The notes beneath the pieces are model-generated. The model was given only the letters and a program-made list of their open reading frames with translations. It did not search any database and was not told where the DNA came from. A stretch of DNA of 64,000 nt from contig JAGNLV010000001.1 in the NCBI GenBank assembly GCA_017999435.1, forward strand, positions 1,022,746 through 1,086,745, in the 5' to 3' direction. Source of the DNA: Candidatus Zixiibacteriota bacterium (GTDB taxonomy: Bacteria > Zixibacteria > MSB-5A5 > GN15 > FEB-12). Both the position numbers and the translations under genes were made by a program. Below are positions 16,330 through 35,361 of the stretch, piece after piece (the first letter of the stretch is position 1; each line of letters begins with the position of its first letter).

Positions 16330-17023
16330 CACGATGTCACCTCCTGGGCAAAGCGAATGGAGAGAAAAAACAGTGGTGGTAAGGCCAGCGAACGCAAGCC
16401 GGATGCGGTGAACGAAAGGCTGCGGCCGCCGGCGGCGCGATACCATGCGGCGCCGGCGCACGGGCGATCGGTCCCGAATGTTCCGGCGGGAAACAACTCA
16501 ATTCCGCCGAATGGCGCGCCGCCCCCTGCCCGCCCGGGCCCGGGCGGAACGGGATCACCATCGGGAGACCAAAGCAGCGCGTCGTGACATATCGTCGGCA
16601 GGCTCAGCGCCCGAATGACTTCGACGAAGGCCCGATGTGTTCGGTCACGCATCTGCGTTTCCTCGGAGAGCCGACTCTCACGATAATGACCATTGCCTTT
16701 GATGATATTATAGTCAGCATGCCACCGGCCTGCAAGTATGTTGTGGACAAACATCACTATTTTCGTTGCATATCGGGCATAGATGTTCGGTGACAATCTG
16801 CAGTCCCAATGCGAGCTCATGTCGGCGCAGTGATCTGATCGAGGCGACATCCGCCCGCCGATTCGCGGCGAGTGTACGAGGCTGCATGCTATATCGCCGG
16901 ACTGCGGGTCCTCCTGACCGCTCTAGCGGTAACCGAGAACGATCAGCGCGGAGTGATGCTGGAGGGGAAGCCGCGAGTGGAGCGGATTCTGGGGATTATC
17001 GGGGGAGCATCCAACTTGAGTAA

Positions 17024-17097
<74 letters not shown>

Positions 17098-17110
17098 ATC
17101 AACAGACCCC

Positions 17111-20090: not shown

Positions 20091-20420
20091 ATGAAACGGT
20101 TGATTATCGGAGGAGTGATTGCGGCGATGAGCTTGGCGTTGGGCTCGAGCGCCGCGTGGGCAAGTGCGTGGGACCCGGAGCATCCGCCGGCGTGGATACC
20201 GGTGCAAATGGCATCCGAGCGCCCCAGCGGTGACGAAGGTAGCTGGGTTGACCCGCATAATCGCATCGCAAGTATATCGCCCGTCGGAGATCTGTTTCAG
20301 CGATTGCTGCTGAAAGTCACTGTGTGGTTCATTGTACCAAGTGCGCAACCGTCATCAGAGACAACCATTCCAGATATTGGGCAAAGTACCGGGGGAGTCT
20401 CCCATGTTTCAGGAAGCTGA
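20091..20420 (+). CDS. small secreted protein, unknown function (tentative)
   Basis: MKRLIIGGVIAAMSLALGSSAAWA is a clean signal peptide. The remainder has no recognisable family, the 3' end overlaps the next gene by 17 nt, and there is no strong RBS. Confidence 0.35.
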   Translation: MKRLIIGGVIAAMSLALGSSAAWASAWDPEHPPAWIPVQMASERPSGDEGSWVDPHNRIASISPVGDLFQRLLLKVTVWFIVPSAQPSSETTIPDIGQSTGGVSHVSGS

Positions 20421-22545
20421 AGCGCTCCTGAGCCAGAATCGGTTCACCGAGGTAATCGCGCTGCTCGATCGAGTTCCACCCCAATCTCTCTCGACCGAGG
20501 AACGCGGTTACTGCTGCATCTTGAAGAGCGAGGCCATGCTCTATCTCGGATTGGATCCGGGCGACCTCATCGATCAGGCGTCCGAGGTGTTCCGCATGCA
20601 TGCCGAGGCCGAGAAGTTCGCACGCGCGAAACTGCTCAAGGGCTGGTATCTGACCACCATCGGACGCTATGCCGATTCCCGCGAGGCTCTTTTGGAGGCA
20701 TATGCCAATTATCTCCGGTGTCGGCACAAGCGGGGAGCAGCCAGGGCCCTGAACCGCCTTGCTTTCGTGCACCGCCAGCTGGGCCACTACCGAGCTGCCG
20801 AGGAGAACCTGACTCGCAGTGCTGAAATCTATCGCGAACTCGCCGATGAAATCAGCATGACCGGAGTGCTGACCAACAGAGCCTACTTGTTGATGAGCGG
20901 CGGGAGTCTCCGTTGCGCTGAGACCGAGTACTCGAAGATGCGTGACACGGTCGTCCAAGCCGGAGAAAAGAACGTTGTAGCCCACGGCAACATGTCGGCG
21001 ATGTGTTACGCCCTCTTGGGCGATCTCACCACCGCCCGAAGAACCATCGACGAGGGCAAACCCTACCTCGACACCTACATCCGCGAGAAAGCCATCTACC
21101 ACGAGAACCTCGGCCTCATCGAAATTCTCTCCGGGAATTACGAGGCGGCCGAGCAGTCGCTGCAAACCGGTCTGGACATCTCGCTGCAAATCGCCCCGGA
21201 ATCCGCGCTGGTCTCGCAGATCAAGCGCCTCTTCGCCGACCTCTATATTCAAACGCAGCACTGGACGAAAGCAGAGAAGTTTGCCCGGGAAGCGCTCGCT
21301 GTGGCCGAGCAGATCAACGAGCGCCTCGAAATCGCCGCCTGCTGGCGGGTTTTCGCCCAAGTCGAGAACCACCGGGGTAATCATGACCAGGCCCGCGCCT
21401 GGTTCGACCAAGCCATCGACCTCTTCAACCAGATCGGCTCCCGCTACGAGCTCGCGGTTACGCGCTGTCTCGCCGCCCTCTCGAACCTGTACGACCGGAA
21501 CAAGCGGGTCGCGCTGCTCTACCTCGCGCGGGAGTATTTTGAGTCTGAAGGGGTGGCTCCCTGGCTGACCAGGGTGACGGAGGCTCTGGAGAACGAGGCG
21601 CCGCCGGCGCCGCGGGCCCGGCCGGCCGCAGCGGCGGCCGTCATTGTCGGGGCGGACAAGTCGCTCAGGCAGATTCTCGCGCTCGCCGAACACGCCGCGC
21701 CGACCGACTTCACCGTCTTCCTCACCGGCGAGACGGGCACGGGCAAGGACCTCCTCGCCCGGCACATCCACGCCTGTTCCGGCCGGAAGGGGGAGTTTGT
21801 CGCGGTCAACGCCGCCGCGATTCCCACCGACATGATCGAGGCCGAGTTGTTCGGCCACGTGATGGGGGCGTTCACCGGCGCAGCCGCCGACCGGCGGGGT
21901 CTCTTCGAGCAGGCCGCCCACGGCACATTCTACCTCGATGAGATCGCCGATGCGTCCCCGCTTTTCCAGGCCAAACTGCTGCAGGTGCTGGAATCGAGGC
22001 AGATTCGGCCGCTCGGCCAGAACGGACTCCGTCCGCTCACCTGCCGGTTTGTCGCGGCCACCAACCACGATCTGCACGACCTGCTCAAGAGCAATGCGTT
22101 CCGGCCCGATCTGTTTCACCGCCTCAACCACGTGCCGATCCACCTTCCGCCGCTGCGCGAACGGCTCAGTGACATTCCGCTGCTGGTGGAGCATTTCCTC
22201 AAGGAGGACGGCATTGTGGCGCGGTCTCGGAACGAAACGCTTGCGCTTGAGCGCCTCTGCCGCCTGCTGGCCGCCCGGTCGTGGCCCGGCAACGTCCGCC
22301 AGCTCCGCTCGGTCGTGCTGCGACTGGCGATGATCGGGGGGCGCGATCTGCCCCGCATGGTCGAGGCGGCGCGCGCCGACATCGACCAGCCCTGCGAGGC
22401 GCAGGATGAACTCCTGTACATGCTGCAAACCACCGGCTGGAATCGGCGGGAGACCGCCCGCCGGTTGGGGGTGAGCGAAGCGACTGTCCGCCGCCGCATC
22501 GCCGAATTCGACCTCGCGGTGCAGATTCCTCAGCCGCCGGCCTGA
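20404..22545 (+). CDS. sigma-54-dependent transcriptional activator (bEBP) with a ~400-aa N-terminal TPR-like sensor region
   Basis: ATG 20404 with GGGGGAG upstream. AAA+ core: Walker A in TGETGTGKD, the GAFTGA loop in GHVMGAFTGAAADRRG, then WPGNVRQL. C-terminal Fis-type HTH: ETARRLGVSEATVRRRI. The N-terminus is helical-repeat TPR-like and has no receiver domain. Confidence 0.9.
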   Translation: MFQEAEALLSQNRFTEVIALLDRVPPQSLSTEERGYCCILKSEAMLYLGLDPGDLIDQASEVFRMHAEAEKFARAKLLKGWYLTTIGRYADSREALLEAYANYLRCRHKRGAARALNRLAFVHRQLGHYRAAEENLTRSAEIYRELADEISMTGVLTNRAYLLMSGGSLRCAETEYSKMRDTVVQAGEKNVVAHGNMSAMCYALLGDLTTARRTIDEGKPYLDTYIREKAIYHENLGLIEILSGNYEAAEQSLQTGLDISLQIAPESALVSQIKRLFADLYIQTQHWTKAEKFAREALAVAEQINERLEIAACWRVFAQVENHRGNHDQARAWFDQAIDLFNQIGSRYELAVTRCLAALSNLYDRNKRVALLYLAREYFESEGVAPWLTRVTEALENEAPPAPRARPAAAAAVIVGADKSLRQILALAEHAAPTDFTVFLTGETGTGKDLLARHIHACSGRKGEFVAVNAAAIPTDMIEAELFGHVMGAFTGAAADRRGLFEQAAHGTFYLDEIADASPLFQAKLLQVLESRQIRPLGQNGLRPLTCRFVAATNHDLHDLLKSNAFRPDLFHRLNHVPIHLPPLRERLSDIPLLVEHFLKEDGIVARSRNETLALERLCRLLAARSWPGNVRQLRSVVLRLAMIGGRDLPRMVEAARADIDQPCEAQDELLYMLQTTGWNRRETARRLGVSEATVRRRIAEFDLAVQIPQPPA

Positions 22546-22567
22546 TCCTGTAGATTCGGCTGTCCCC

Positions 22568-22625
22568 GGCCTGCGTCATGAGCGCGGTTCCTGACGCACT
22601 CGTGACGCAGGCCTCGCTTTATTAA
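22568..22625 (+). terminator. possible terminator hairpin after the bEBP gene
   Basis: GGCCTGCGTCA (22568-22578) pairs perfectly with TGACGCAGGCC (22603-22613), followed by TCGCTTTATTAA. The loop is long (24 nt) and contains another TGACGCA. Confidence 0.35.
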
Positions 22626-22684
22626 TGCCTTTAGTTTCAACAGCTTTGCGCGGCCTGCGTCACGCTGCGTCACGCCGTGCGTCA
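22572..22684. promoter_or_regulatory. array of six TGCGTCA/TGACGCA heptamers (candidate regulator or enhancer binding sites)
   Basis: TGCGTCA at 22572, 22656, 22666 and 22678. The complement TGACGCA at 22592 and 22603. Neighbour spacings are 10-12 nt. Confidence 0.45.
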
Positions 22685-22852
22685 CAACGACGTCCCGGCC
22701 CCGGCGCGGCTGCTCGCGCACGCCCTCCGCATTCCTCGCCAACTGCTTCCCCGTCAATGCGATGCTCAGAAAGCTTTCAGGCGTCTCTCTGTTCGGCACG
22801 CGGGTTGATTATAGATCGCATGCAGACGGTTGGGTTGCGGCGGCGGTGACAC

Positions 22853-23000
22853 GAGGCATCTGCCTATCGCCGACCGCAAGCTAGGGAAGTCGCAGGCATG
22901 GTCCTCACACGGGTCGGGCCGGCTGTTCCCGCCGAGCCTACTCAACGCACCGGGAACACCGGCCTTCCCCGGGGGACCGGACACGTGGTGACCGATCAGC
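22853..23000. repeat. 148-nt conserved intergenic element, copy 1
   Basis: 142/148 identical to 27797-27944 in the same orientation, with unrelated flanks. Internal stem 22917-22931 / 22951-22964. Confidence 0.85.
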
Positions 23001-23320
23001 TCCGGCGACATGTCAGAGCGGATCGCGATGCACTTGAAGCGGCATGCGACAGGGCAGTAGCACGAAGAGCGGCTTGACGGACCGCCGGCTGGGCGACGGA
23101 ATGAGCAGCACAATGTCATGGAGAATAGCGGGGATGGCAGTGCCCCGAGGGCGATCTGAGAGTGTTCGCCCATGCCTCTTGTTCCTCTTGTGTCCAATGC
23201 ACTTCCTCCTGGACGGCGGCGGGGAGTTGACGGTTACTCCCCGCTGCCGCCAATGCCGCGGAGAGCGCGTGCCGCCCCGGACGCCGGTCTGACCGGGGAC
23301 ACTGGACGGGAAGAAGCCAA

Positions 23321-23349
23321 TGGACGTCCTGTAGATATAGCAGTATCTT
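23321..23349 (+). promoter_or_regulatory. candidate promoter of paralog P1
   Basis: TGGACG, 17 nt spacer, TATCTT (23344-23349). The AGTATCTTAC block and spacing are conserved upstream of paralog P2. AGGAGGG RBS precedes ATG 23376. Confidence 0.35.
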
Positions 23350-23375
23350 ACGACCACACAGCACAGGAGGGTACT

Positions 23376-24566
23376 ATGAGGTATCGAAGCAGACTCGCTC
23401 TCTTCGGGCTTGGGTGCATGGCGCTGTTATGGGCGACGCTTGCCTTGGCGACGCCACCGGGGGTTTTTTTGCCCTTTGCACTCGATCTCCGCATTGTCTC
23501 CTATGACCAGTCGACCGGCCGCGTCGTCCTGGATGTTGGCATTGCTACCCACGTCCCGTGCCCCGACGGCCTTTCCGCACGGGTCGACAGTTTGGATGGT
23601 CTTGCGTACTTTGGTCCTGATAGCTGGCAGTTGGCCATGGAGCCTGGCGGGGAGACCCTTTTCACGCGCGTGGAGTTCACGATTCCGACCCACGACACGA
23701 GCGGATTTGAACTCATTACTAGTTGTGGTGAGCACGTTTACGACTGGAGCCGCTACTTTGTGACGGCCGGTGATAGCATCGCCATTGTTTGTGGGGATCC
23801 CCGCACCTGGCCCGACCCCGACCCCGCCCCCGATTCCGTCGTTCGCCGACTGGTGTGGGAAGAGATCGAGCGCCAGTTAGCCGAGCAACGCCGCACCTCC
23901 CCGCCGCCTCCCCCGGAAGGATACAGCAGCACTTATATTATCATTTATCCCGGTGACAGCGCGTTGGCCGACAGCCTGACCGATGACGGCAAGCGCCGGC
24001 TGGCCATTATGCGGAGTCGCGAGCGGGAACCCCTTGTTGACAGCGATATGGACACCTGGGAAATCGAGGGCCGCGTCTTCCAACGGGCCAAAGGCGAGCG
24101 ACAGTTCCATCGCATTAAGGGACACACCACCGAGGAGTGGTGCGAGTTAGCGGTACGTATGTGGGACTCATTGGACGCCGCCGACGCCGACAAGCCCTTG
24201 GAGATTTTCGTCGATCTGCGGAAACCGGAGCAAGAGGCCTTCATGCGCTCGTTTGTCGACTCCCTCATTCCTACTGACAGCGCCGGTATCTATCGGACCG
24301 TAATCCTGTACCGCCAGCAGAAGGATTTGGAGGCCCATGGAATCCGCTACCGCAACGCCAGCGCCGGCATGTGGCGACAGCGCAGTCGCCAACCGGTAGG
24401 GAATCCCTCGCCGGAGAGCCGGGAACAGGAGGCGCCCGGTAAGTCCGCTGACAGCGGGCGCTCGTCCATGTTCTACGAGGATTTCGAGTGGGGGTCTTTT
24501 TCGAACACGTGGATCGCGATGGACACCTTGCCTCAAAACGGCCTGGACTACTGGGGAAGCATCTAG
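23376..24566 (+). CDS. secreted protein of unknown family, paralog P1 (ends at an in-frame TAG)
   Basis: ATG 23376 after AGGAGGG. Signal peptide MRYRSRLALFGLGCMALLWATLALA. Paralogous to 25117..26265 along its length. Track ORF 23172.. starts too early. Confidence 0.7.
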   Translation: MRYRSRLALFGLGCMALLWATLALATPPGVFLPFALDLRIVSYDQSTGRVVLDVGIATHVPCPDGLSARVDSLDGLAYFGPDSWQLAMEPGGETLFTRVEFTIPTHDTSGFELITSCGEHVYDWSRYFVTAGDSIAIVCGDPRTWPDPDPAPDSVVRRLVWEEIERQLAEQRRTSPPPPPEGYSSTYIIIYPGDSALADSLTDDGKRRLAIMRSREREPLVDSDMDTWEIEGRVFQRAKGERQFHRIKGHTTEEWCELAVRMWDSLDAADADKPLEIFVDLRKPEQEAFMRSFVDSLIPTDSAGIYRTVILYRQQKDLEAHGIRYRNASAGMWRQRSRQPVGNPSPESREQEAPGKSADSGRSSMFYEDFEWGSFSNTWIAMDTLPQNGLDYWGSI

Positions 24567-24923
24567 GACGATTACACGCCGTTCGGCTCTAAAGACGCCT
24601 GGTGCGCCGCGCAGGGCGACATGCCCGAAGGTATTCACTACGACAACTGGATGGACGCCTTCATGGAAGTGAAGTATCCCGTGAGTACTGAAGACCATAC
24701 TAATACGCAGTTGTGGTTTTGGGTGGATTATGACACCGAGGCAGGTAGGGATTTCCTTCAGGTCCAGTCTCAGTTCGGCGATCTGGTCTGGTATGCGATC
24801 TCGCCTCCCTACAGCGGTTCCCCGGCGACGGAGCGTCTGCTCCCGCCGCCCCCGAACCGCCCCGGCTCCGGGGGAGCGACAAGGCACCGCGAATTGCCCG
24901 ATGCGACACCCCTTGTCCGATAG
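24567..24923 (+). pseudogene. in-frame continuation of P1 beyond the TAG (probable severed C-terminal domain)
   Basis: Same frame as P1 with no gap: ...LDYWGSI*DDYTPFGSKDAWCAAQGDMPEGIHYDNWMDAFMEVKYPVSTEDHTNTQLWFWVDYDTEAGRDFLQVQ.... This is protein-like sequence for 118 further codons. Confidence 0.45.
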
Positions 24924-25065
24924 TCCGAGAGCGAAATCTTCACCGGGATGACAACCGGGAACAGAAGGGGTGAGGGAAAGAGCGGGAAGAGACGAAGCGG
25001 CAGCGCCTGGAGAAACGAGCTGACGTGCGGGAAGGTCAATGCGCACTTAAACGGGAAGACCGCCA

Positions 25066-25094
25066 TAGGCGTCCCTGTATCAGGGTAGTATCTT
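25066..25094 (+). promoter_or_regulatory. candidate promoter of paralog P2
   Basis: TAGGCG, 17 nt spacer, TATCTT (25089-25094). Homologous to the P1 upstream block. Confidence 0.3.
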
Positions 25095-25116
25095 ACATGT
25101 AACACAGGAGGGTACC

Positions 25117-26265
25117 ATGAAGTATCGAAGTGGATTTCTGATTCTCTTCGGGCTTGGGTGCATGGGCCTCGTGGCCAGCCCGGCCGAGGCGTGGAAGGAG
25201 AACTACGTCGGCTACTTTGACTGCTCGACGAAGGTAGTCAATGCAAACCCGGCGACCGGCCAGGTGACGGTAGCCGTGACCCTTACGCCCCTGTCCGGCT
25301 ATGACCGCCGATGCGAAGCGGTTTCCTTTGAGATCACCGACATCGAGGACGTTGAGATTCTCAGTCCCCTGCGATGGGACCTCCCTTTGATCGATTCGAT
25401 CACGCCGCTGGTGGCGATGATCGATCTCCGCGTGCCAACACACGACACCGCTGGTTTTGCGCTGGTGACGACGTGCGGGACATGGAACTACAAGTGGCCC
25501 CAGTTCTTCGGTCCGGCGGGAGACAGCATCCGCTGGTTTTGGTCTGATCCCCGCACCTGGCCACCGCTGGGCGCGCCCGCCCCCGATTCGGTCCGGGCCC
25601 GGCTCGCCCAGGAGCGGTCGGAGCGGTACCTCGAGTGGCTCCGCCAGCAGCCCCCGCCGCCTCCCCCGCAAGGATACAGCAGCACTTATATTATCATTTA
25701 TCCCGGTGACAGCGCGTTGGCCGACAGCCTCACCGAGCAAGGCAAAAGCCAACTCGCCGGTATGCGCAAGAGAGAGCAGAGCCCCTTAGTCGACGCCGAC
25801 TGCGAGCCGTGGTCAGTCGACGACCGGCACTTCATCCGCCACCGCGGCGAATCCCGCTTCCGTCCCGTGGAGACGTTCACCCTCGACCAGGCGCGGGAAC
25901 GCGCCCAGCGCAAGCGGGACTCTCTGGAAGTGGCTCAAGCGCACATCACCTACGAGGTGCTCGTCGACCTGCGCAACCCGGCGGACTCGCTCTGGGTGGC
26001 CGCCCACGTTGATTCCCTCATCCCGACCGACTCCACCGGCTTCTACCGGATCAAGATCAATAAACGGACGTGGCGTCAGATGGGAGAGGCGGGCGTCCCC
26101 TGGTGGGAGACTTCGACGCGGAAACCGCCGGTACCCCGCTCTCACCCTGAGCCCCCAAAACCGCCCCGCTCCGAGCGGGACGCTACCCTTCCGCTCCACC
26201 TCGCGGACGGTCGCTCGCTTCTGTTCTTTGAAGGGTTTGAGGGGGCATGGCCCGGCGCGTGCTAA
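25117..26265 (+). CDS. secreted protein of unknown family, paralog P2
   Basis: AGGAGGG RBS. Signal peptide MKYRSGFLILFGLGCMGLVASPAEA. Shares PTHDT(S/A)GF, DPRTWP, PPPPP(E/Q)GYSSTYIIIYPGDSALADSLT and VDSLIPTDS blocks with P1. It ends just after FEGFEGAWPG, where P1 continues. Confidence 0.75.
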   Translation: MKYRSGFLILFGLGCMGLVASPAEAWKENYVGYFDCSTKVVNANPATGQVTVAVTLTPLSGYDRRCEAVSFEITDIEDVEILSPLRWDLPLIDSITPLVAMIDLRVPTHDTAGFALVTTCGTWNYKWPQFFGPAGDSIRWFWSDPRTWPPLGAPAPDSVRARLAQERSERYLEWLRQQPPPPPPQGYSSTYIIIYPGDSALADSLTEQGKSQLAGMRKREQSPLVDADCEPWSVDDRHFIRHRGESRFRPVETFTLDQARERAQRKRDSLEVAQAHITYEVLVDLRNPADSLWVAAHVDSLIPTDSTGFYRIKINKRTWRQMGEAGVPWWETSTRKPPVPRSHPEPPKPPRSERDATLPLHLADGRSLLFFEGFEGAWPGAC

Positions 26266-26303
26266 CATAGAGCTACAATCACACGAATCAAAGGAGGAGC
26301 GCG

Positions 26304-27392
26304 ATGCGGCGATGGACGCGAGCATGCGGGATCATGTCGGCCGGGAGCATCCTGGCCGGATTGATGCTCATTGTCGGGCTGCTGGGGCCGGCCTGCGACG
26401 ACGACCCTACCGGCCCCGACCACCCGGATTTGCCGGACGGCAAGGACTATGTCTTCTACTACCGGGATCAGGCGACCGGGACCCTGTACGGGTACCATCT
26501 GGTCAGCGAGCGTGTGGATACGTTCACCGTTCCCTACGTGGCCCGGTTTGGGATGTTTGTGTCGGCCGACGGGCAAAGGCTCTACGTTGCCGGACCGCAG
26601 GCCACCGGGGTGGTGGCGCTCGCCACCAGGACGCTGGTGGCGGAACTGCCGTATGCGCAGTACCCGGTAGGCAACGGCATCATCTTTTCGCCGGACGGGC
26701 GGTTCATGGCTTTCCTGGGCAGTACGCTCACCATCCTCACCTACCCGGATCACGAGCCGGTATTTCGTGATACGATGGGCGCGGGGACCGGGTGTTTCAC
26801 GCCGGGCGGGGAGCGGCTGTACTATGTTCCGCCGGGGGCGGACCAGGTGCGGGTTGTTGAGACAACCGGCGGGGAGGCTCGGGTGCATCCCCGGGTGTTC
26901 AATCCCCGCCTCAGCAAGATTCGAGTGCTCTCCGACGAGTCCCGCTGGGTGCTCTACCAGAGTATCTCCTGCGACATCGGCGGCGTGGTATCGGTCTATG
27001 ACCCGATCCGGGACACGATGGAATTTCAGGAGTGGTTCTACCTGTCGTGCGGGATGCTCGCAGTGTCGGCCGATGATCGCTGGGCGTTCTATGATAACCC
27101 GGGGCCTTTGCTGAACCCTGTGCCGGGCACTCCACTTGAGTTCCGGGTTCTTAACTTGGTGACCAAACGGCTCGATCGGTTGGTCAGCACGGTGGGGATA
27201 GCGGACGGGCTCAACCCGCAGGATATGGCCGTGGGGTGGCTCTACGTGTCGCCCGACAGCCGCTGGTTGGTGGCGGCGGGCACCTGGGGGGATCAGTTTC
27301 TGGTTTTCGATGTGAGGCACTTAAAGGTAGATCGGTACATCAAGCTGGACGGTTTCTGGTCCGACATGTTTGCCGGCCAGGAAGGACTCTAG
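26304..27392 (+). CDS. beta-propeller-like lipoprotein (YVTN/YncE-like repeats)
   Basis: AAAGGAGGAG RBS. Lipobox ...LIVGLLGPAC. Repeated motifs of the type ...SADGQRLYVAG..., ...SPDGRFMAF..., ...TPGGERLYYV..., ...SPDSRWLVAAG.... Starts 38 nt after P2. Confidence 0.75.
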   Translation: MRRWTRACGIMSAGSILAGLMLIVGLLGPACDDDPTGPDHPDLPDGKDYVFYYRDQATGTLYGYHLVSERVDTFTVPYVARFGMFVSADGQRLYVAGPQATGVVALATRTLVAELPYAQYPVGNGIIFSPDGRFMAFLGSTLTILTYPDHEPVFRDTMGAGTGCFTPGGERLYYVPPGADQVRVVETTGGEARVHPRVFNPRLSKIRVLSDESRWVLYQSISCDIGGVVSVYDPIRDTMEFQEWFYLSCGMLAVSADDRWAFYDNPGPLLNPVPGTPLEFRVLNLVTKRLDRLVSTVGIADGLNPQDMAVGWLYVSPDSRWLVAAGTWGDQFLVFDVRHLKVDRYIKLDGFWSDMFAGQEGL

Positions 27393-27796
27393 ACGTTCCG
27401 AGCACAGGAGGTTCTGCAATGTACAGGTGGAGGGATTTACTCGCGTGAGGCGCAGTCGTGGCCACGCTGTGCTCGACGACGGTCGGGGAGACCCACTACT
27501 ACGCGGGAGGTGGTCCAGTCGAAATGGCTACCGACAGCGGGTGCGTCCAGGTAATGCCGGATTCGATGATTCCCGTAGACTCGTTGATCAGGCTGATCAC
27601 GCAGCTTGACGGCGTGGTCGGCCTGCCTGACGAGATTCCGTTCTCCGGCGGGTACCTTGTGTGCATCCTGACGACCGCTACTTTCGATTCCACTGTCTTG
27701 GGGTTGGAAGCGCTCATCTATTCTGCATCCCCCGAACCGCCCCGGGCCCGGGGGGAACGAGAGAAAGGAGGCGATGAGTGCATCGGGGTGAGGCCA

Positions 27797-27944
27797 GAGG
27801 CATCTGCTAACCGCCGACCGCAAGATAGAGAAGTCGCAGGCATGGTCCTCACACGGGTCGGGCCGGCTGTTCCCGCTGAGCCTACTCAACGCACCGGGAA
27901 CACCGGCCTTCCCCGGGGGACCGGACACGTGGTGACCGATCAGC
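27797..27944. repeat. 148-nt conserved intergenic element, copy 2
   Basis: See copy 1. Five of the six differences are in the first 33 nt. The sixth falls in the predicted hairpin loop. Confidence 0.85.
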
Positions 27945-28010
27945 GTGTTGGGGGTCGCGTTCGGAGCTGTCCAGCGGCTCTGTCGGCGGCGCCGCGCAAA
28001 AAACGGGTAG
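27945..28010 (+). pseudogene. remnant of the C-terminal TM-RRRRAKNG module of a small membrane protein
   Basis: Own translation VLGVAFGAVQRLCRRRRAKNG* compared with the end of the 28177..28374 product (ILVGAVFAVVYRLIRRRRAKNG*). 29 nt (27984-28012) are identical to 28348-28376. There is a stop codon immediately upstream in this frame. Confidence 0.4.
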
Positions 28011-28128
28011 CGGCGTTTAGTCGGTACTGGCCGGCTGCGCAGTCTCATCAGGCGGGAGCCGCAAGGCTCCCGCCGCCGACGCCCGCGCAAGAAAGGGAGG
28101 ATGACATCGACGTGATGTACAAACTCGC

Positions 28129-28144
28129 CGGTTACCATACTGCA
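28129..28144 (+). promoter_or_regulatory. candidate sigma-54 (-24/-12) promoter
   Basis: CGGTTACCATACTGCA. GG (28130-28131), 10 nt, then GC (28142-28143) with CTGCA at -12. The predicted TSS is ~20 nt before the RBS and GTG 28177. Confidence 0.3.
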
Positions 28145-28176
28145 GATAGGCAAATATCGGGAAAGGAGGTCCTCCA

Positions 28177-28374
28177 GTGAAAGAGACAGCCAAGTACTTT
28201 CTTTGGGGTGTAGCTCTCAGCGCTCTGCTGTTTCTTATCGACCGCCTGACCGGCATCGACGATCTACCGTACGGCTGGTCGCTCATAGCAGGAATCGGCG
28301 TCGCCATTCTCGTGGGAGCCGTGTTCGCAGTCGTCTACCGGCTGATCCGGCGGCGCCGCGCAAAAAACGGGTAG
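28177..28374 (+). CDS. small membrane protein (2 TM, basic C-terminus)
   Basis: GTG 28177 lies 7 nt after AAAGGAGG. MKETAKYFLWGVALSALLFLIDRL...WSLIAGIGVAILVGAVFAVVYRLIRRRRAKNG. Confidence 0.6.
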   Translation: MKETAKYFLWGVALSALLFLIDRLTGIDDLPYGWSLIAGIGVAILVGAVFAVVYRLIRRRRAKNG

Positions 28375-28481
28375 CGAGTCTCGTGGATGCTCGCCCCGTA
28401 CGCATTCTCATCGGGCGCGAGCGACCGGGGCGGTGGATTAGGCGGCATCGCACAGACGTCTAATAGGAGCGTTCGGAAATC

Positions 28482-28724
28482 ATGATTTCATTAGTCGCAC
28501 TGGGCCTGATGGTGATCGGCATCGTGCTTTTGGTCCTCGCCTATCGGCGGCAGCGCCCGGACGCACCGCGCCTCGGCTCGGTGGACGCGCATCAGCCGCG
28601 CACCTGGCGACCAGTCTGGCGGCAGCGTCACCTGTTTGCCGAAAAGAGAGGCTTTGTGTGCTATCTCATCGGAGCAACTCTCATTGTGAGCGGCGGAATG
28701 CTGGGCGCCGTATTCGTTTTCTGA
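28482..28724 (+). CDS. small membrane protein (2 TM)
   Basis: ATG 28482 after TAGGAG. MISLVALGLMVIGIVLLVLAYRR...FVCYLIGATLIVSGGMLGAVFVF. Confidence 0.55.
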   Translation: MISLVALGLMVIGIVLLVLAYRRQRPDAPRLGSVDAHQPRTWRPVWRQRHLFAEKRGFVCYLIGATLIVSGGMLGAVFVF

Positions 28725-30890: not shown

Positions 30891-31096
30891 CCGCGGCGCC
30901 GGGGCGGCCGGGTCGCGCCGGTTCCGCTCCGCCGACAGCACTATCCAAACGCCTTGCTCTCCCCCCATACTGTGTGCCCCCGCGCCCACATCCGGGCGGG
31001 CCCGGCCGGGCTGCCCCCTTGTCCTTTGACCCGTGGCGCCCCGGCACACCGTTTGAATCCCGCTTGGACATGGATTTTGTTTCGAAAGGAGACCGT

Positions 31097-31642
31097 ATGC
31101 ACGCACGCGTTCGGGCGTTGTGTCTCGCCGGCCTGGTGCTCCTGTGTTCGCCGGCCGCTGCCCAGGATTGGTTCAACGGAGGGCCGGACACCCTGGCCGG
31201 GGCGGATCCGGCGCCGCGTCCGGAGACGATCTCCGACTTTATGCACGCGGCCGACCTGTGGCACGACGCCACGCTCAAGGGGGATCCGCGGATGATCCGC
31301 AAACGCGAGCTGCAGCTCGTGCGGTTTCTCAATGAGGACATCGCCGCTTCCCGGCGGCGCTACGAGAGCTGCGCGGCGCGGGTGGAGGCGGCCGGCGGCC
31401 CGGATTCCGGCCGGGTCGGCGTCTTCCCGCCATCGGCCCAGCGCGCCCTCGATGATCTCGCGCGCGCCGAGCAATGGCTGCGGGTGAAAAAGCGGCTCCT
31501 CCGCGGCTTTGAGCAGGGCGGGACGTTCGCGGCGCAATACCGCCAGATTATGGATTATCGGGACATTCTCCGCATGGAGTATGATCAGTGGCGCGTGCTG
31601 GTGGCCGACGGCGCCTCAGCGGACAGCGCCGAGACCAAATAG
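31097..31642 (+). CDS. secreted hypothetical protein
   Basis: ATG 31097 after AAGGAGA. Signal peptide MHARVRALCLAGLVLLCSPAAAQ. A strong terminator follows. Confidence 0.6.
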   Translation: MHARVRALCLAGLVLLCSPAAAQDWFNGGPDTLAGADPAPRPETISDFMHAADLWHDATLKGDPRMIRKRELQLVRFLNEDIAASRRRYESCAARVEAAGGPDSGRVGVFPPSAQRALDDLARAEQWLRVKKRLLRGFEQGGTFAAQYRQIMDYRDILRMEYDQWRVLVADGASADSAETK

Positions 31643-32681: not shown

Positions 32682-32703
32682 GAGAGCGACTGAAAAGACC
32701 GTT

Positions 32704-32784
32704 CCGTTGGGGGTGGCGTAAGAACGACCGCCTGAGATCATACCCCCTCGACCTGATCCGGGTAATACCGGCGTAGGGAAACGG
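32704..32784 (+). promoter_or_regulatory. TPP (THI-box) riboswitch aptamer
   Basis: CCGTTGGGGGTGGCG...GCCTGAGATCATACCCCCTCGACCTGATCCGGGTAATACCGGCGTAGGGAAACGG. Contains the CTGAGA, ACCTGATC-GG-TAATACC-GCG-AGGGA consensus blocks. P1 is CCGTT (32704-32708) paired with AACGG (32780-32784). Confidence 0.85.
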
Positions 32785-32880
32785 AGATGTTCGCATCGCA
32801 TCCCCTGGCCTTTTCCGGGCTACCTATGACGCTCAGGACGGAACCTTGCTGAATCGTCACATCGACGCGAGGTTGTTGTC

Positions 32881-35361
32881 ATGAGATGTGCTGTCCTCAT
32901 CACGATCATGCTGGCGCCGTTTGCCGCGGCGGTGGAGGCCGCGCCGCTGTCCGGCATGGTGCAGAATCCCGACGGCGAGCCGCTGGCCGCCGTCTCCCTG
33001 ACCACCAACGTCGCCGGCCTGGGAACGAGCACCGACGCCGCCGGCGCTTTCACGCTCGAGTGTCCGGGCGACGTCCGCTGGGTGACCTTCTCCTCGGTCG
33101 GCTATCAGCCCCGGCAGTACCCGGTCGACGCGGTGCCGGCGCGGGTGGTGCTGGCGTACGAGTACTCGCCGGGGGGGGATGTCGTCGTGCGCGGCGACCG
33201 CGCCCAGCCGGGTCTGTCTCCGATCGCATTCACCGACTACTCGCGGAAAGACATCGCCCGCGACTACAGCATCGGCGAGTTCCCGCTGCTCCTGCAGGCG
33301 ACCCCGAACCTCTACACGTACACCGACGGCGGGGGCGCCCTGGGCTACAGCTCGGTGCGTATCCGGGGCTTCGACGACAAGCGGATCGCCGCCTCTCTCA
33401 ACGGCGTCCCGCTGAACGACCCGGAGGACCAGGCCGCCTATTTCGTCGACCTGCCCGACTTCGCCGCCAACATCACGGACATCCAGGTCCAGCGCGGGGT
33501 CGGCAACGCGCTCTACGGCGCGGCGTCGTTCGGCGGTTCACTCAACATCGTCACCGGCGCCCTCAGCCGCGACCGCCGCGTCACCGTGACCTCCGGCTAC
33601 GGCGAGTACACCTCGGGTGGCGACCGGGTCAGCGACCTTGCCAAGTCGAGCATCGAGTACGTGTCGGGGCTGATCGACGGCCGCTGGCTGTTTACCGGGC
33701 GCTTCTCCGACCAGCGCTCCGGCGGCTACCGCCGCCACAGCTGGTACGACGGCTGGTCCTACTACCTGTCGCTGGCCCGGCTCGACCCGCGCATGACGAC
33801 CGAGCTGTACCTCTACGGGGGACCGATCCGCATGCACCTGGCCTACTACGGGGTCGATCGGGCGACGCTTGCTGTCGACCGCCGCGCCAACCCGCTGACC
33901 TACCGCAACGAGACCGACAACTTCAACCAGCCCCACTTCCACCTCCACAACACCTACCAGCTCAGCGAGCGCGCCACACTCGCCACCACCCTGTACTACA
34001 TCCAGGGGGAAGGCTACTACGAGCAACTCAAACAACTGGAGGATCCGGACGACTTCGCCGTGTACGGTCTTGATCCGGGGGAGCTTGCGGTGGATCAGCC
34101 GAGACTCGTGCGGCAGAAGTGGGTGGACAAACGCCAGTGGGGGTGGAACCCGCGGCTTGATCTCGCCCATGCCCGCGGCCGCCACAGCATCGGCGGTTCC
34201 GCCTACTACTTCACCTCCGATCACTGGGGACAGGTGGTCTGGGTGGAAGGTCTCGAAGACCGGTCCTACGGCCCGCGCCAGCGGTACTACAGGTATGAGG
34301 GGAGGAAAGTCGAGGCCAACCTGTTCGCCCAGGAATACTGCCGCCTCACCGACCGCTTGGCCGGCGAAGCCACGGCCATGCTCCGGTACCAGCGGTACGA
34401 CTTCGATCAGACCCGCATGTACTCGTTCCGGGGTTTTCGCTACGACGTCGACTGGCTGTTCTTCTCCCCCCGCCTCGGTTTCACCTACACGCTCGCCCCG
34501 GAAATCGCGCTCCATACGGCTTTCGCCGTGTCTTCGCGCACTCCGACCGACGAGGATATCTACGAGGCCGATGATCCCTTCGCCCTCCCCTCGCTGGACA
34601 TCCGTTCCGTGAGCGCCGACTCCGCGCGCTGGGAGTTCGGCGATCCGACGGCCAAGGCCGAGCGGGTGTACGACTTCGAGCTGGGCGGCGGGTACCGTTC
34701 CGACCGGTACGCGGTCGAGCTCGCCCTGTACTGGATGGAGTTCCGCGACGAGATCATCCCGGAGGGAGCGGTTGACGCCTCCGGCCGGCGCCGGACCATC
34801 AACGCCGACCGCTCGGTCCACGCCGGCCTCGAGCTCAGCGGCACGGCCCGGCCTACGGAGGCCCTGGCCCTGTCGGGCAATTTCGCCTGGGCCTACAACC
34901 GGATCCGCGACTACACGGCATCGCTCGACCTCTACGACACCGACTGGAACTACGCCGGGCAATACCGGTTCGATCTCGCCGACAAAACCGTGCCCGGTTT
35001 CCCGGCGTACCTCGGCAACGTCCTTCTGGATTACCGCTATCGCGGTCTCCGGGCGGTCTGGCGGCACCAGTTTGTCGGCGCCCAGGAGCTCGACCTCGCC
35101 AACACCGACAGTCTGCGAATCGAGCCGTTCCAGCTCGCCTCGGTGAGTCTCTCCTACCGGTTCTCCGATTTTTGGCATCTGGGCGCTCTCACTCTCACGG
35201 CCCGGGTCAACAACGTGTTCGATCGGCGCTATGAGGCGGGCGGCTACGGGTGGAACTACGCGGTTGCAGGGGATGGCGGGACGGACGTGCTCGGCGGCGC
35301 GGAGTATTTCGCCGCGCCCGAACGATGGTACTATGGAGAAGTGAAGCTGGAGATCTTCTGA
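32881..35361 (+). CDS. TonB-dependent outer-membrane receptor (carboxypeptidase-regulatory-like N-domain)
   Basis: Signal peptide. GMVQNPDGEPLAAVSLTT... N-domain. Plug region SVRIRGFDDKRIAASLNGVPLNDPE. Long beta-barrel ending YYGEVKLEIF. Confidence 0.9.
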   Translation: MRCAVLITIMLAPFAAAVEAAPLSGMVQNPDGEPLAAVSLTTNVAGLGTSTDAAGAFTLECPGDVRWVTFSSVGYQPRQYPVDAVPARVVLAYEYSPGGDVVVRGDRAQPGLSPIAFTDYSRKDIARDYSIGEFPLLLQATPNLYTYTDGGGALGYSSVRIRGFDDKRIAASLNGVPLNDPEDQAAYFVDLPDFAANITDIQVQRGVGNALYGAASFGGSLNIVTGALSRDRRVTVTSGYGEYTSGGDRVSDLAKSSIEYVSGLIDGRWLFTGRFSDQRSGGYRRHSWYDGWSYYLSLARLDPRMTTELYLYGGPIRMHLAYYGVDRATLAVDRRANPLTYRNETDNFNQPHFHLHNTYQLSERATLATTLYYIQGEGYYEQLKQLEDPDDFAVYGLDPGELAVDQPRLVRQKWVDKRQWGWNPRLDLAHARGRHSIGGSAYYFTSDHWGQVVWVEGLEDRSYGPRQRYYRYEGRKVEANLFAQEYCRLTDRLAGEATAMLRYQRYDFDQTRMYSFRGFRYDVDWLFFSPRLGFTYTLAPEIALHTAFAVSSRTPTDEDIYEADDPFALPSLDIRSVSADSARWEFGDPTAKAERVYDFELGGGYRSDRYAVELALYWMEFRDEIIPEGAVDASGRRRTINADRSVHAGLELSGTARPTEALALSGNFAWAYNRIRDYTASLDLYDTDWNYAGQYRFDLADKTVPGFPAYLGNVLLDYRYRGLRAVWRHQFVGAQELDLANTDSLRIEPFQLASVSLSYRFSDFWHLGALTLTARVNNVFDRRYEAGGYGWNYAVAGDGGTDVLGGAEYFAAPERWYYGEVKLEIF

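Follow-up and report, generated by a model that had tools for sequence, protein, structure and literature searches.

A two-copy hairpin repeat in a Zixibacteria activator cluster: a possible sigma-54 leader segment and its local duplicate

Several described systems come close to the locus analysed here, a 148-nt repeat present twice in a 64-kb stretch of DNA (the window, by which we mean the whole stretch). In bEBP-controlled sigma-54 leader operons, an activator gene, clustered sites, a GGCACG-N4-TTG promoter and a long untranslated leader follow one another. The window shows the same order; unlike in such operons, however, the second copy of its repeat (copy B) stands without a sigma-54 promoter, and the leader, which is predicted here, is not conserved with those of related clusters. 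MITEs and ERIC/REP repeats are, like the window repeat, short, non-coding and intergenic, with a stable imperfect palindrome. The window repeat differs from them in having neither terminal inverted repeats (TIRs) nor target-site duplications (TSDs), in its two copies, and in a palindrome that forms the central 79 of its 148 nt. Templated patch insertions and ectopic conversion tracts likewise place a short stretch from a few kilobases away at the breakpoint of a truncated gene, and in the window a second patch, between P1 and P2, lies nearby; unlike in these cases, no junctional microhomology is evident in the flanks of the window repeat, and the mechanism is here a proposed one. Finally, three related Zixibacteria clusters (L030, L031 and L033) resemble the window in carrying direct repeats with sharp ends in two long gaps of one cluster, but theirs span activator sites and promoter whereas the window's covers only +33 to +180, and the two kinds share no homology.

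The two copies of the window repeat are:

22853-23000, plus strand: repeat copy A, 148 nt, at about +33 to +180 of a predicted sigma-54 transcript.
27797-27944, plus strand: repeat copy B, 148 nt, identical to copy A at 142 of 148 positions.

Realignment bore out what a sequence-only reading had proposed, namely two same-strand copies with a single difference in their last 115 nt. The copies differ at 22864, 22865, 22867, 22881, 22885 and 22933 (element positions 12, 13, 15, 29, 33 and 81), where the substitutions from A to B are C/T, T/A, T/C, C/A, G/A and C/T, respectively. The divergence is thus uneven, with 5 of 33 positions differing in the 5' part against 1 of 115 in the 3' part. This pattern hints weakly at selection or conversion (p about 0.04 if four events are counted), and its statistical signal is weak because three of the differences are grouped in one cluster, CTAT>TAAC. 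The ends of the repeat are sharp and the flanks unrelated, as the same reading had held: Smith-Waterman scores of upstream against upstream and of downstream against downstream flanks fell within the range of shuffled sequences. The copies lie 4.9 kb apart in direct orientation, and no third copy was found in the 64-kb window by a gapless family search, by blastn with a 7-nt word or by nhmmer. Both copies are identical across five independent assemblies (L001-L005), so that the repeat is not an assembly artefact; a sixth (L006) has copy A only, again identical. The window itself is identical to a 516-kb JGI contig. The assemblies that carry the neighbouring proteins include activated-sludge metagenomes and others that, going by the JGI sample series, we take to be anaerobic digesters, and NCBI annotates these proteins as belonging to candidate division Zixibacteria MAGs.

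The surroundings of copy A are those of a regulated transcription unit, and comprise the following features:

20404-22545, plus strand: activator gene (bEBP) encoding TPR, sigma-54 AAA+ and Fis-type HTH domains (PF00158, 1.5e-56; TPR families; HTH_8).
22573-22684, no strand assigned: six TGCGTCA/TGACGCA sites by motif count, a probable upstream activator sequence for the adjacent activator.
22794-22810, plus strand: predicted sigma-54 promoter cGGCACGcgggTTGAtt, 19.3 bits, with a predicted start near 22820.
23214-23252, plus strand: strong GC-rich hairpin (inverted match 23214-23249) between copy A and the conserved upstream region of P1.

The 830-nt gap that follows the activator gene thus holds the TGCGTCA sites, then the promoter, then copy A. 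TGCGTCA/TGACGCA occurs 44 times in the window, six of them within the 112 nt at 22573-22684, where an inverted-repeat structure is present, and no other 300-nt span has three or more. The promoter weight matrix was built only from the promoters of related clusters, without the window site; the predicted promoter at 22794-22810 ranked second in 128 kb, and the next unrelated match reached 13.1 bits. With the usual −24/−12 geometry, a start near 22820 would place copy A at about +33 to +180. The predicted distance from promoter to first gene is 566 nt in the window against 389 and 417 nt in two relatives. The hairpin at 23214-23252 may be a terminator or a processing site. As a separate observation, the strongest sigma-54 match, CGGCACACCGTTTGAAT (21.3 bits), lies at 31042-31058, about 40 nt upstream of a 181-aa gene (31097-31642); this predicted promoter probably answers to a different activator, since no TGCGTCA sites accompany it. 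We also observed that a mini-ORF precedes each copy (22820-22849 and 27774-27791); its stop codon is the TGA of a GGTGA common to both sites and lies 3-5 nt short of the element. The one before copy A, MQTVGLRRR*, begins at the predicted transcription start, and the one before copy B, MSASG*, stands behind a strong Shine-Dalgarno (SD) sequence; their presence before both copies may be a coincidence.

We compared this arrangement with that of related Zixibacteria clusters, chosen for activators 50-53% identical to the window's. In all six clusters, the window's included, the activator stop codon is followed on the same strand, at a distance of 190-600 nt, by a GGCACG-N4-TTG(A/C) promoter. Moreover, in all three relatives with enough sequence the sigma-54 regulatory region is duplicated in direct orientation in a second long intergenic gap of the same cluster, 3.2-4.7 kb downstream:

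L031, 10121-10736 and 13309-13924: 616 nt, 98% identical, covering activator sites, promoter and about 300 nt of leader.
L033, 9710-9910 and 14377-14582: 206 nt, 86% identical, covering about −70 to +130.
L030, 10205-10751 and 13803-14367: about 570 nt, 65% identical (81-88% in the core), covering activator sites, promoter and the first ~130 nt of leader.

The clusters are related to the window's, since its 80-aa gene has homologues in L030. As the regulatory region is duplicated in three relatives, a repeat in two long gaps is, on the sequences compared, a recurrent feature of these clusters. The likeness of the window repeat to these duplicates nevertheless appears to be one of architecture only. 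The relatives' leaders have in common a TTGAGCGT motif about 50 nt after the promoter and gave no Rfam match; their RNAalifold consensus showed no shared structure, and alignment of the window leader with them gave no credible homology. A motif common to the window and L031, GAAAGGAGGYGATG, was judged an SD-driven coincidence. We found no literature linking Zixibacteria with sigma-54, and this recurrent cluster design, in which a TPR/sigma-54 activator, its binding sites, a sigma-54 promoter and a long leader form a block repeated in the cluster with up to 98% identity, is apparently undescribed. These duplicated sigma-54 blocks are of more interest than the window repeat itself. Should the leaders prove to be functional RNAs, these clusters of an uncultured phylum would be a good place to seek new sigma-54-linked riboregulation; otherwise, the locus exemplifies how local duplication, conversion and decay yield repeats that resemble structured RNAs. 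In L030 (7727-8059), L031 (7724-8056) and L033 (6718-7038), a further ORF of about 105-110 aa, whose start is signal-peptide-like, runs into the 5' end of the activator gene; its products are homologous among the three. The window has a similar ORF at the same position (20092-20420), whose product gave no blastp match to the relatives' at E<=1e-3; the ORF may be a conserved partner of the TPR/sigma-54 activator.

Within the repeat, the most conspicuous property is its fold:

22900-22978, no strand assigned: core imperfect palindrome or hairpin of copy A, 27 pairs, −47 kcal/mol, z −4.9 on the plus and −4.6 on the minus strand.
27844-27922, no strand assigned: core hairpin of copy B, −48.1 kcal/mol, z −5.1.

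A 14-bp helix with one bulged C, pairing 22917-22931 with 22951-22964, had been noticed from the letters alone; it recurs within the minimum-free-energy fold, as part of the larger GC-rich hairpin of 79 nt. None of 200 shuffles was as stable as this core, and the lone core difference between A and B, a C>T, falls in the apical loop region. The fold does not tell the strands apart, because the minus strand folds about as well (z = −4.6), and that of the full 148-mer is unexceptional (z = −1.4 plus, −2.3 minus). The hairpin occupies the middle of the repeat, with 47 nt on its 5' side and 22 nt on its 3' side. It has no match among known RNA families, in agreement with the earlier impression: at the gathering threshold, Rfam gave only a TPP riboswitch and tRNA in the whole window and nothing at the repeat, and at E<=10 the four matches within 22400-28500 (E 1.2-9.6) overlapped neither copy. 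A covariance model of both copies found no match in seven related loci. No homologue that could supply covariation was found, and the six differences between A and B include no compensatory pair. A conserved cis-regulatory RNA or riboswitch gained no support on these two counts, the lack of a homologue in other genomes and of compensatory changes. Each copy also contains the shared 34-codon ATG frame that had been described with reservations, and the reservations were upheld: the frame has no AGGAGG-type SD, non-coding codon statistics and no homologues outside the locus. A small-protein reading was rejected, with GC at the three codon positions of 0.78/0.59/0.61 against about 0.63/0.47/0.77 in real genes.

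The surroundings of copy B are of another kind, and include the following features:

27763-27780, plus strand: orphan Shine-Dalgarno GAAAGGAGG, a motif seen at this one place in the window, with an ATG/GTG after it that opens no long ORF; copy B begins 17 nt further downstream.
27945-28060, plus strand: truncated copy of the last 21 codons of a 65-aa gene and of its downstream region, 76-81% identical to 28313-28422.
28177-28374, plus strand: 65-aa membrane protein gene, downstream of copy B.

The homology of the gene remnant starts at the first base after copy B. The orphan SD arrangement resembles the start of the 65-aa gene, GGAAAGGAGG-N7-GTG, and may be the 5' stump of a disrupted small gene; no significant similarity to the 5' half of that gene was found upstream of copy B. 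We read copy B as occupying the middle of what looks like a wrecked paralogue of the 65-aa gene. The site is a replacement in which about 40 codons were lost, and not a clean insertion. In the copy B gap, the best sigma-54 match reaches 10 bits and lies within sequence of coding-like codon-position GC, and no TGCGTCA sites accompany the copy. The proposal that the repeat is a cis-regulatory or small RNA is supported for copy A alone, which begins about 33 nt after a predicted sigma-54 start; no equivalent promoter precedes copy B. A recombination footprint, which had been offered as another candidate, fits copy B best, its 3' end adjoining a truncated paralogue and the orphan SD and start codon lying just upstream.

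The reading that we prefer, with a probability of about 0.45, is that the repeat is a segment of a sigma-54 leader whose hairpin would act in cis, and that copy B is a duplicate produced by local rearrangement and probably not under sigma-54 control. The adjacent TPR/sigma-54 activator would bind the TGCGTCA cluster and fire the promoter at 22794-22810. Copy A would be the resident copy, its transcript carrying the hairpin at about +80 to +158, where it would most plausibly serve as a stem that stabilises the transcript or directs its processing, or else as a pause or attenuator. Copy B would have arisen by a local copy-and-paste event, either templated repair or ectopic conversion, in which it replaced the middle of the paralogue of the 65-aa gene, probably remaining outside sigma-54 control. 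The duplication would then be part of a general tendency of Zixibacteria activator clusters to duplicate their regulatory region internally. We count in favour of this scenario the sharp-ended repeat with its hairpin, the activator gene, TGCGTCA cluster and high-scoring predicted promoter ahead of copy A, the presence of such a promoter in all six clusters, the lack of the element upstream of P1-family genes in other genomes, the coincidence of the paralogue's breakpoint with the 3' end of copy B, the partial duplications and the nonsense-split P1 in the same cluster, the duplicates in the relatives and the lack of any homologue of the repeat. Against it, copy B has neither promoter nor TGCGTCA sites, unlike the relatives' duplicates, which always include a promoter; the element has no detectable homology, in sequence or in structure, with the leaders of the relatives; and all but one of the six differences are confined to the first 33 nt, a weak signal. 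Selection or gene conversion could account for the likeness of the 3' 115 nt, and copy B would then have a function.

The main alternative, though an unlikely one, is that both copies have a function, either as cis-regulatory RNA modules or as a small RNA encoded twice, and that they coordinate the two halves of the cluster, with selection or conversion preserving their likeness. It would follow the same logic as the duplicated sigma-54 regulatory regions of the relatives, and repeats between two long gaps recur in three related clusters. The high stability of the hairpin, the contrast between 1 of 115 and 5 of 33 differences in the two parts of the repeat, and the setting of each copy, which points the same way as the genes beyond it and has first a GC hairpin and then a gene on its 3' side, all agree with it. 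However, no promoter was found for copy B, which interrupts a gene remnant instead of lying within an intact leader. Without a homologue in other genomes there is no covariation support, the six differences contain no compensatory pair, and the element is missing from the conserved region that P1-family genes themselves have upstream. A more specific version, which we hold to be less likely still, is that the hairpin unit is a lineage-specific regulatory RNA module, that every species maintains two near-identical leader copies within one cluster through concerted evolution, and that both copies in the window are functional. If this were true, the copies might act, for example, as a common binding or processing site coupling the two halves of the cluster. 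Its host could then be a widespread and undescribed type of Zixibacteria/FCB cluster, made up of a small ORF, a TPR-sigma-54 activator, activator sites, a sigma-54 promoter, a leader of roughly 400 nt and small membrane proteins.

The distribution of the repeat bears on whether it is mobile. Two of its six reading frames are open through the element. The plus-frame translation, searched against 5.8 billion proteins, and the minus-frame translation, searched against 1.8 billion representatives, each returned ORFs from the two known contexts or hybrids of these, and no others. This genome may hold further copies, because an ORF search is indirect and spurious ORFs are called only occasionally. 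An exact 20-mer scan of 185,579 GTDB species-representative genomes gave 13 matches of 20-26 nt, all due to chance, so that either the GTDB set does not include the source species or its representative does not include the locus. The same scan of metagenome contigs gave one relevant contig and one chance match, and plasmid, phage and IMG/VR collections gave no match to the repeat. Within the collections searched, the repeat is therefore an orphan, apparently known from one uncultured Zixibacteria species. As a lineage-specific intergenic repeat or leader hairpin it is of a familiar kind, to which it adds a new instance; with two copies, one species and no family, the element alone matters little.

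In keeping with this distribution, we consider it improbable that the repeat is a small non-autonomous mobile element, MITE-like or derived from the end of an insertion sequence (IS), inserted once in a leader and once in a small gene. Its sharp boundaries, the same in both copies and set in unrelated flanks, would suit such an element, as would the disruption of a gene by copy B and a window leader that exceeds those of two relatives by about 150-177 nt, roughly the length of the element. The non-autonomous element that had been suggested nevertheless finds little to sustain it. Terminal inverted repeats are absent, as originally noted: the inverted repeats are internal only, and the ends, GAGGCATC... 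and ...GATCAGC, are not complementary. We looked for a target-site duplication and found none, the flanks (GTGACAC and TCCGGCG for copy A, GAGGCCA and GTGTTGG for copy B) having no common direct repeat. No transposase or reverse transcriptase occurs among the gene calls of 15117-36265, about 7 kb either side, which agrees with the earlier remark on this point. Recombinases are limited to one serine recombinase, which varies between strains and lies some 6 kb off, beside a tRNA-Met gene. In comparison with IS200/IS605 elements, PATEs and REPs, the hairpin is central and not subterminal, and neither TnpA/TnpB nor RAYT is encoded within 15117-36265. Only two copies are known, 4.9 kb apart, and none besides these appeared in the window, in the collections mentioned above or among read-through ORFs. 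Moreover, copy B sits in a replacement with a loss of some 40 codons.

Four short contigs from four assemblies (L024, L025, L026, which equals L022, and L036) join the upstream flank of copy B to the downstream flank of copy A through one element; two of them cross over at element positions 82-148, the remaining two at 34-80. Such a junction is the one expected from a circle or a tandem duplication of the 4.9-kb P1-P2-P3 segment. One could thus imagine that the copies are direct repeats for excision or tandem amplification of this segment by homologous recombination, and the occurrence of the join in four assemblies, with crossovers at two places, points in that direction. We regard this as very unlikely, however. 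All four contigs are 2.6 kb or shorter, and one (L022/L026) has a coverage of about 2x. The order is canonical in every long contig fetched (41 kb to 516 kb; contigs of up to 2.9 Mb are on record). The copies have just two long stretches of identity, of 47 and 67 nt, and it is there that the crossovers fall; low-k graphs form junctions in such stretches, and tip clipping at low coverage can yield such joins, judging from how assemblers work. An analogous deletion contig, L027, crosses a 29-nt identity. Furthermore, the contigs were found through cluster members of ORFs that read through the element, so that only contigs with the copy B upstream flank were retrievable and the sample is biased. 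The junction contigs are therefore best regarded as probable low-coverage assembly chimeras, given their shortness, the crossovers in identical stretches, the L027 analogue, the canonical long contigs and the biased sample. L027 (ERZ926494) itself joins window positions 25670-28059 to 28348-28542, without the 65-aa gene, within a 29-nt identity common to 27984-28012 and 28348-28376; the contig represents a true deletion variant or else a chimera due to low coverage.

Two further classes were rejected: a template/variable (TR/VR) pair of a diversity-generating retroelement, since the differences are not adenine-specific and no reverse transcriptase occurs in the neighbouring gene calls, and integron attC or other att sites, as no GTTRRRY-type cores were seen and the crossovers of the junction contigs lie at two different positions.

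Signs of turnover were also observed elsewhere in the cluster. The P1 and P2 proteins are 41-45% identical, and a 96-nt patch between their genes (23889-23983 and 25642-25736) reaches 95% DNA identity, which suggests gene conversion within the cluster. The 396-aa P1 and the next ORF of 100 aa form one frame (23376-24923), split in all assemblies by a TAG at 24564-24566, which aligns with a tyrosine of a relative, P0015. P2 stops at the start of the C-terminal domain into which P1 and this relative extend. P1/P2-family relatives in L028 and L029 have a conserved 80-nt upstream region without the element. P0015, the closest relative of P1, is encoded on a 1.6-kb contig of L029 (GCA_049322935.1, JBMOPV010000127.1) binned as Candidatus Micrarchaeota; the contig is likely mis-binned, given its bacterial-type upstream region. 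A GC-rich palindromic motif, CCCCGAACCGCCCCGGnnCCGGGGG, occurs three times at the ends of genes or ORFs (16522-16554, 24849-24874 and 27730-27762) and is likely a terminator hairpin without a U-tract. Other strains (L001, L003 and L004, positions 1-1860) diverge from the window exactly at 16977, beside the tRNA-Met gene at 17023-17098 on the minus strand. At least L001 carries a gene for a 557-aa large serine recombinase at this site, where the window has RND efflux genes; the site looks like that of a strain-variable integrated element. Further downstream, a TPP riboswitch (72 bits) at 32699-32796 lies directly upstream of a TonB-dependent receptor gene (32881-35361).
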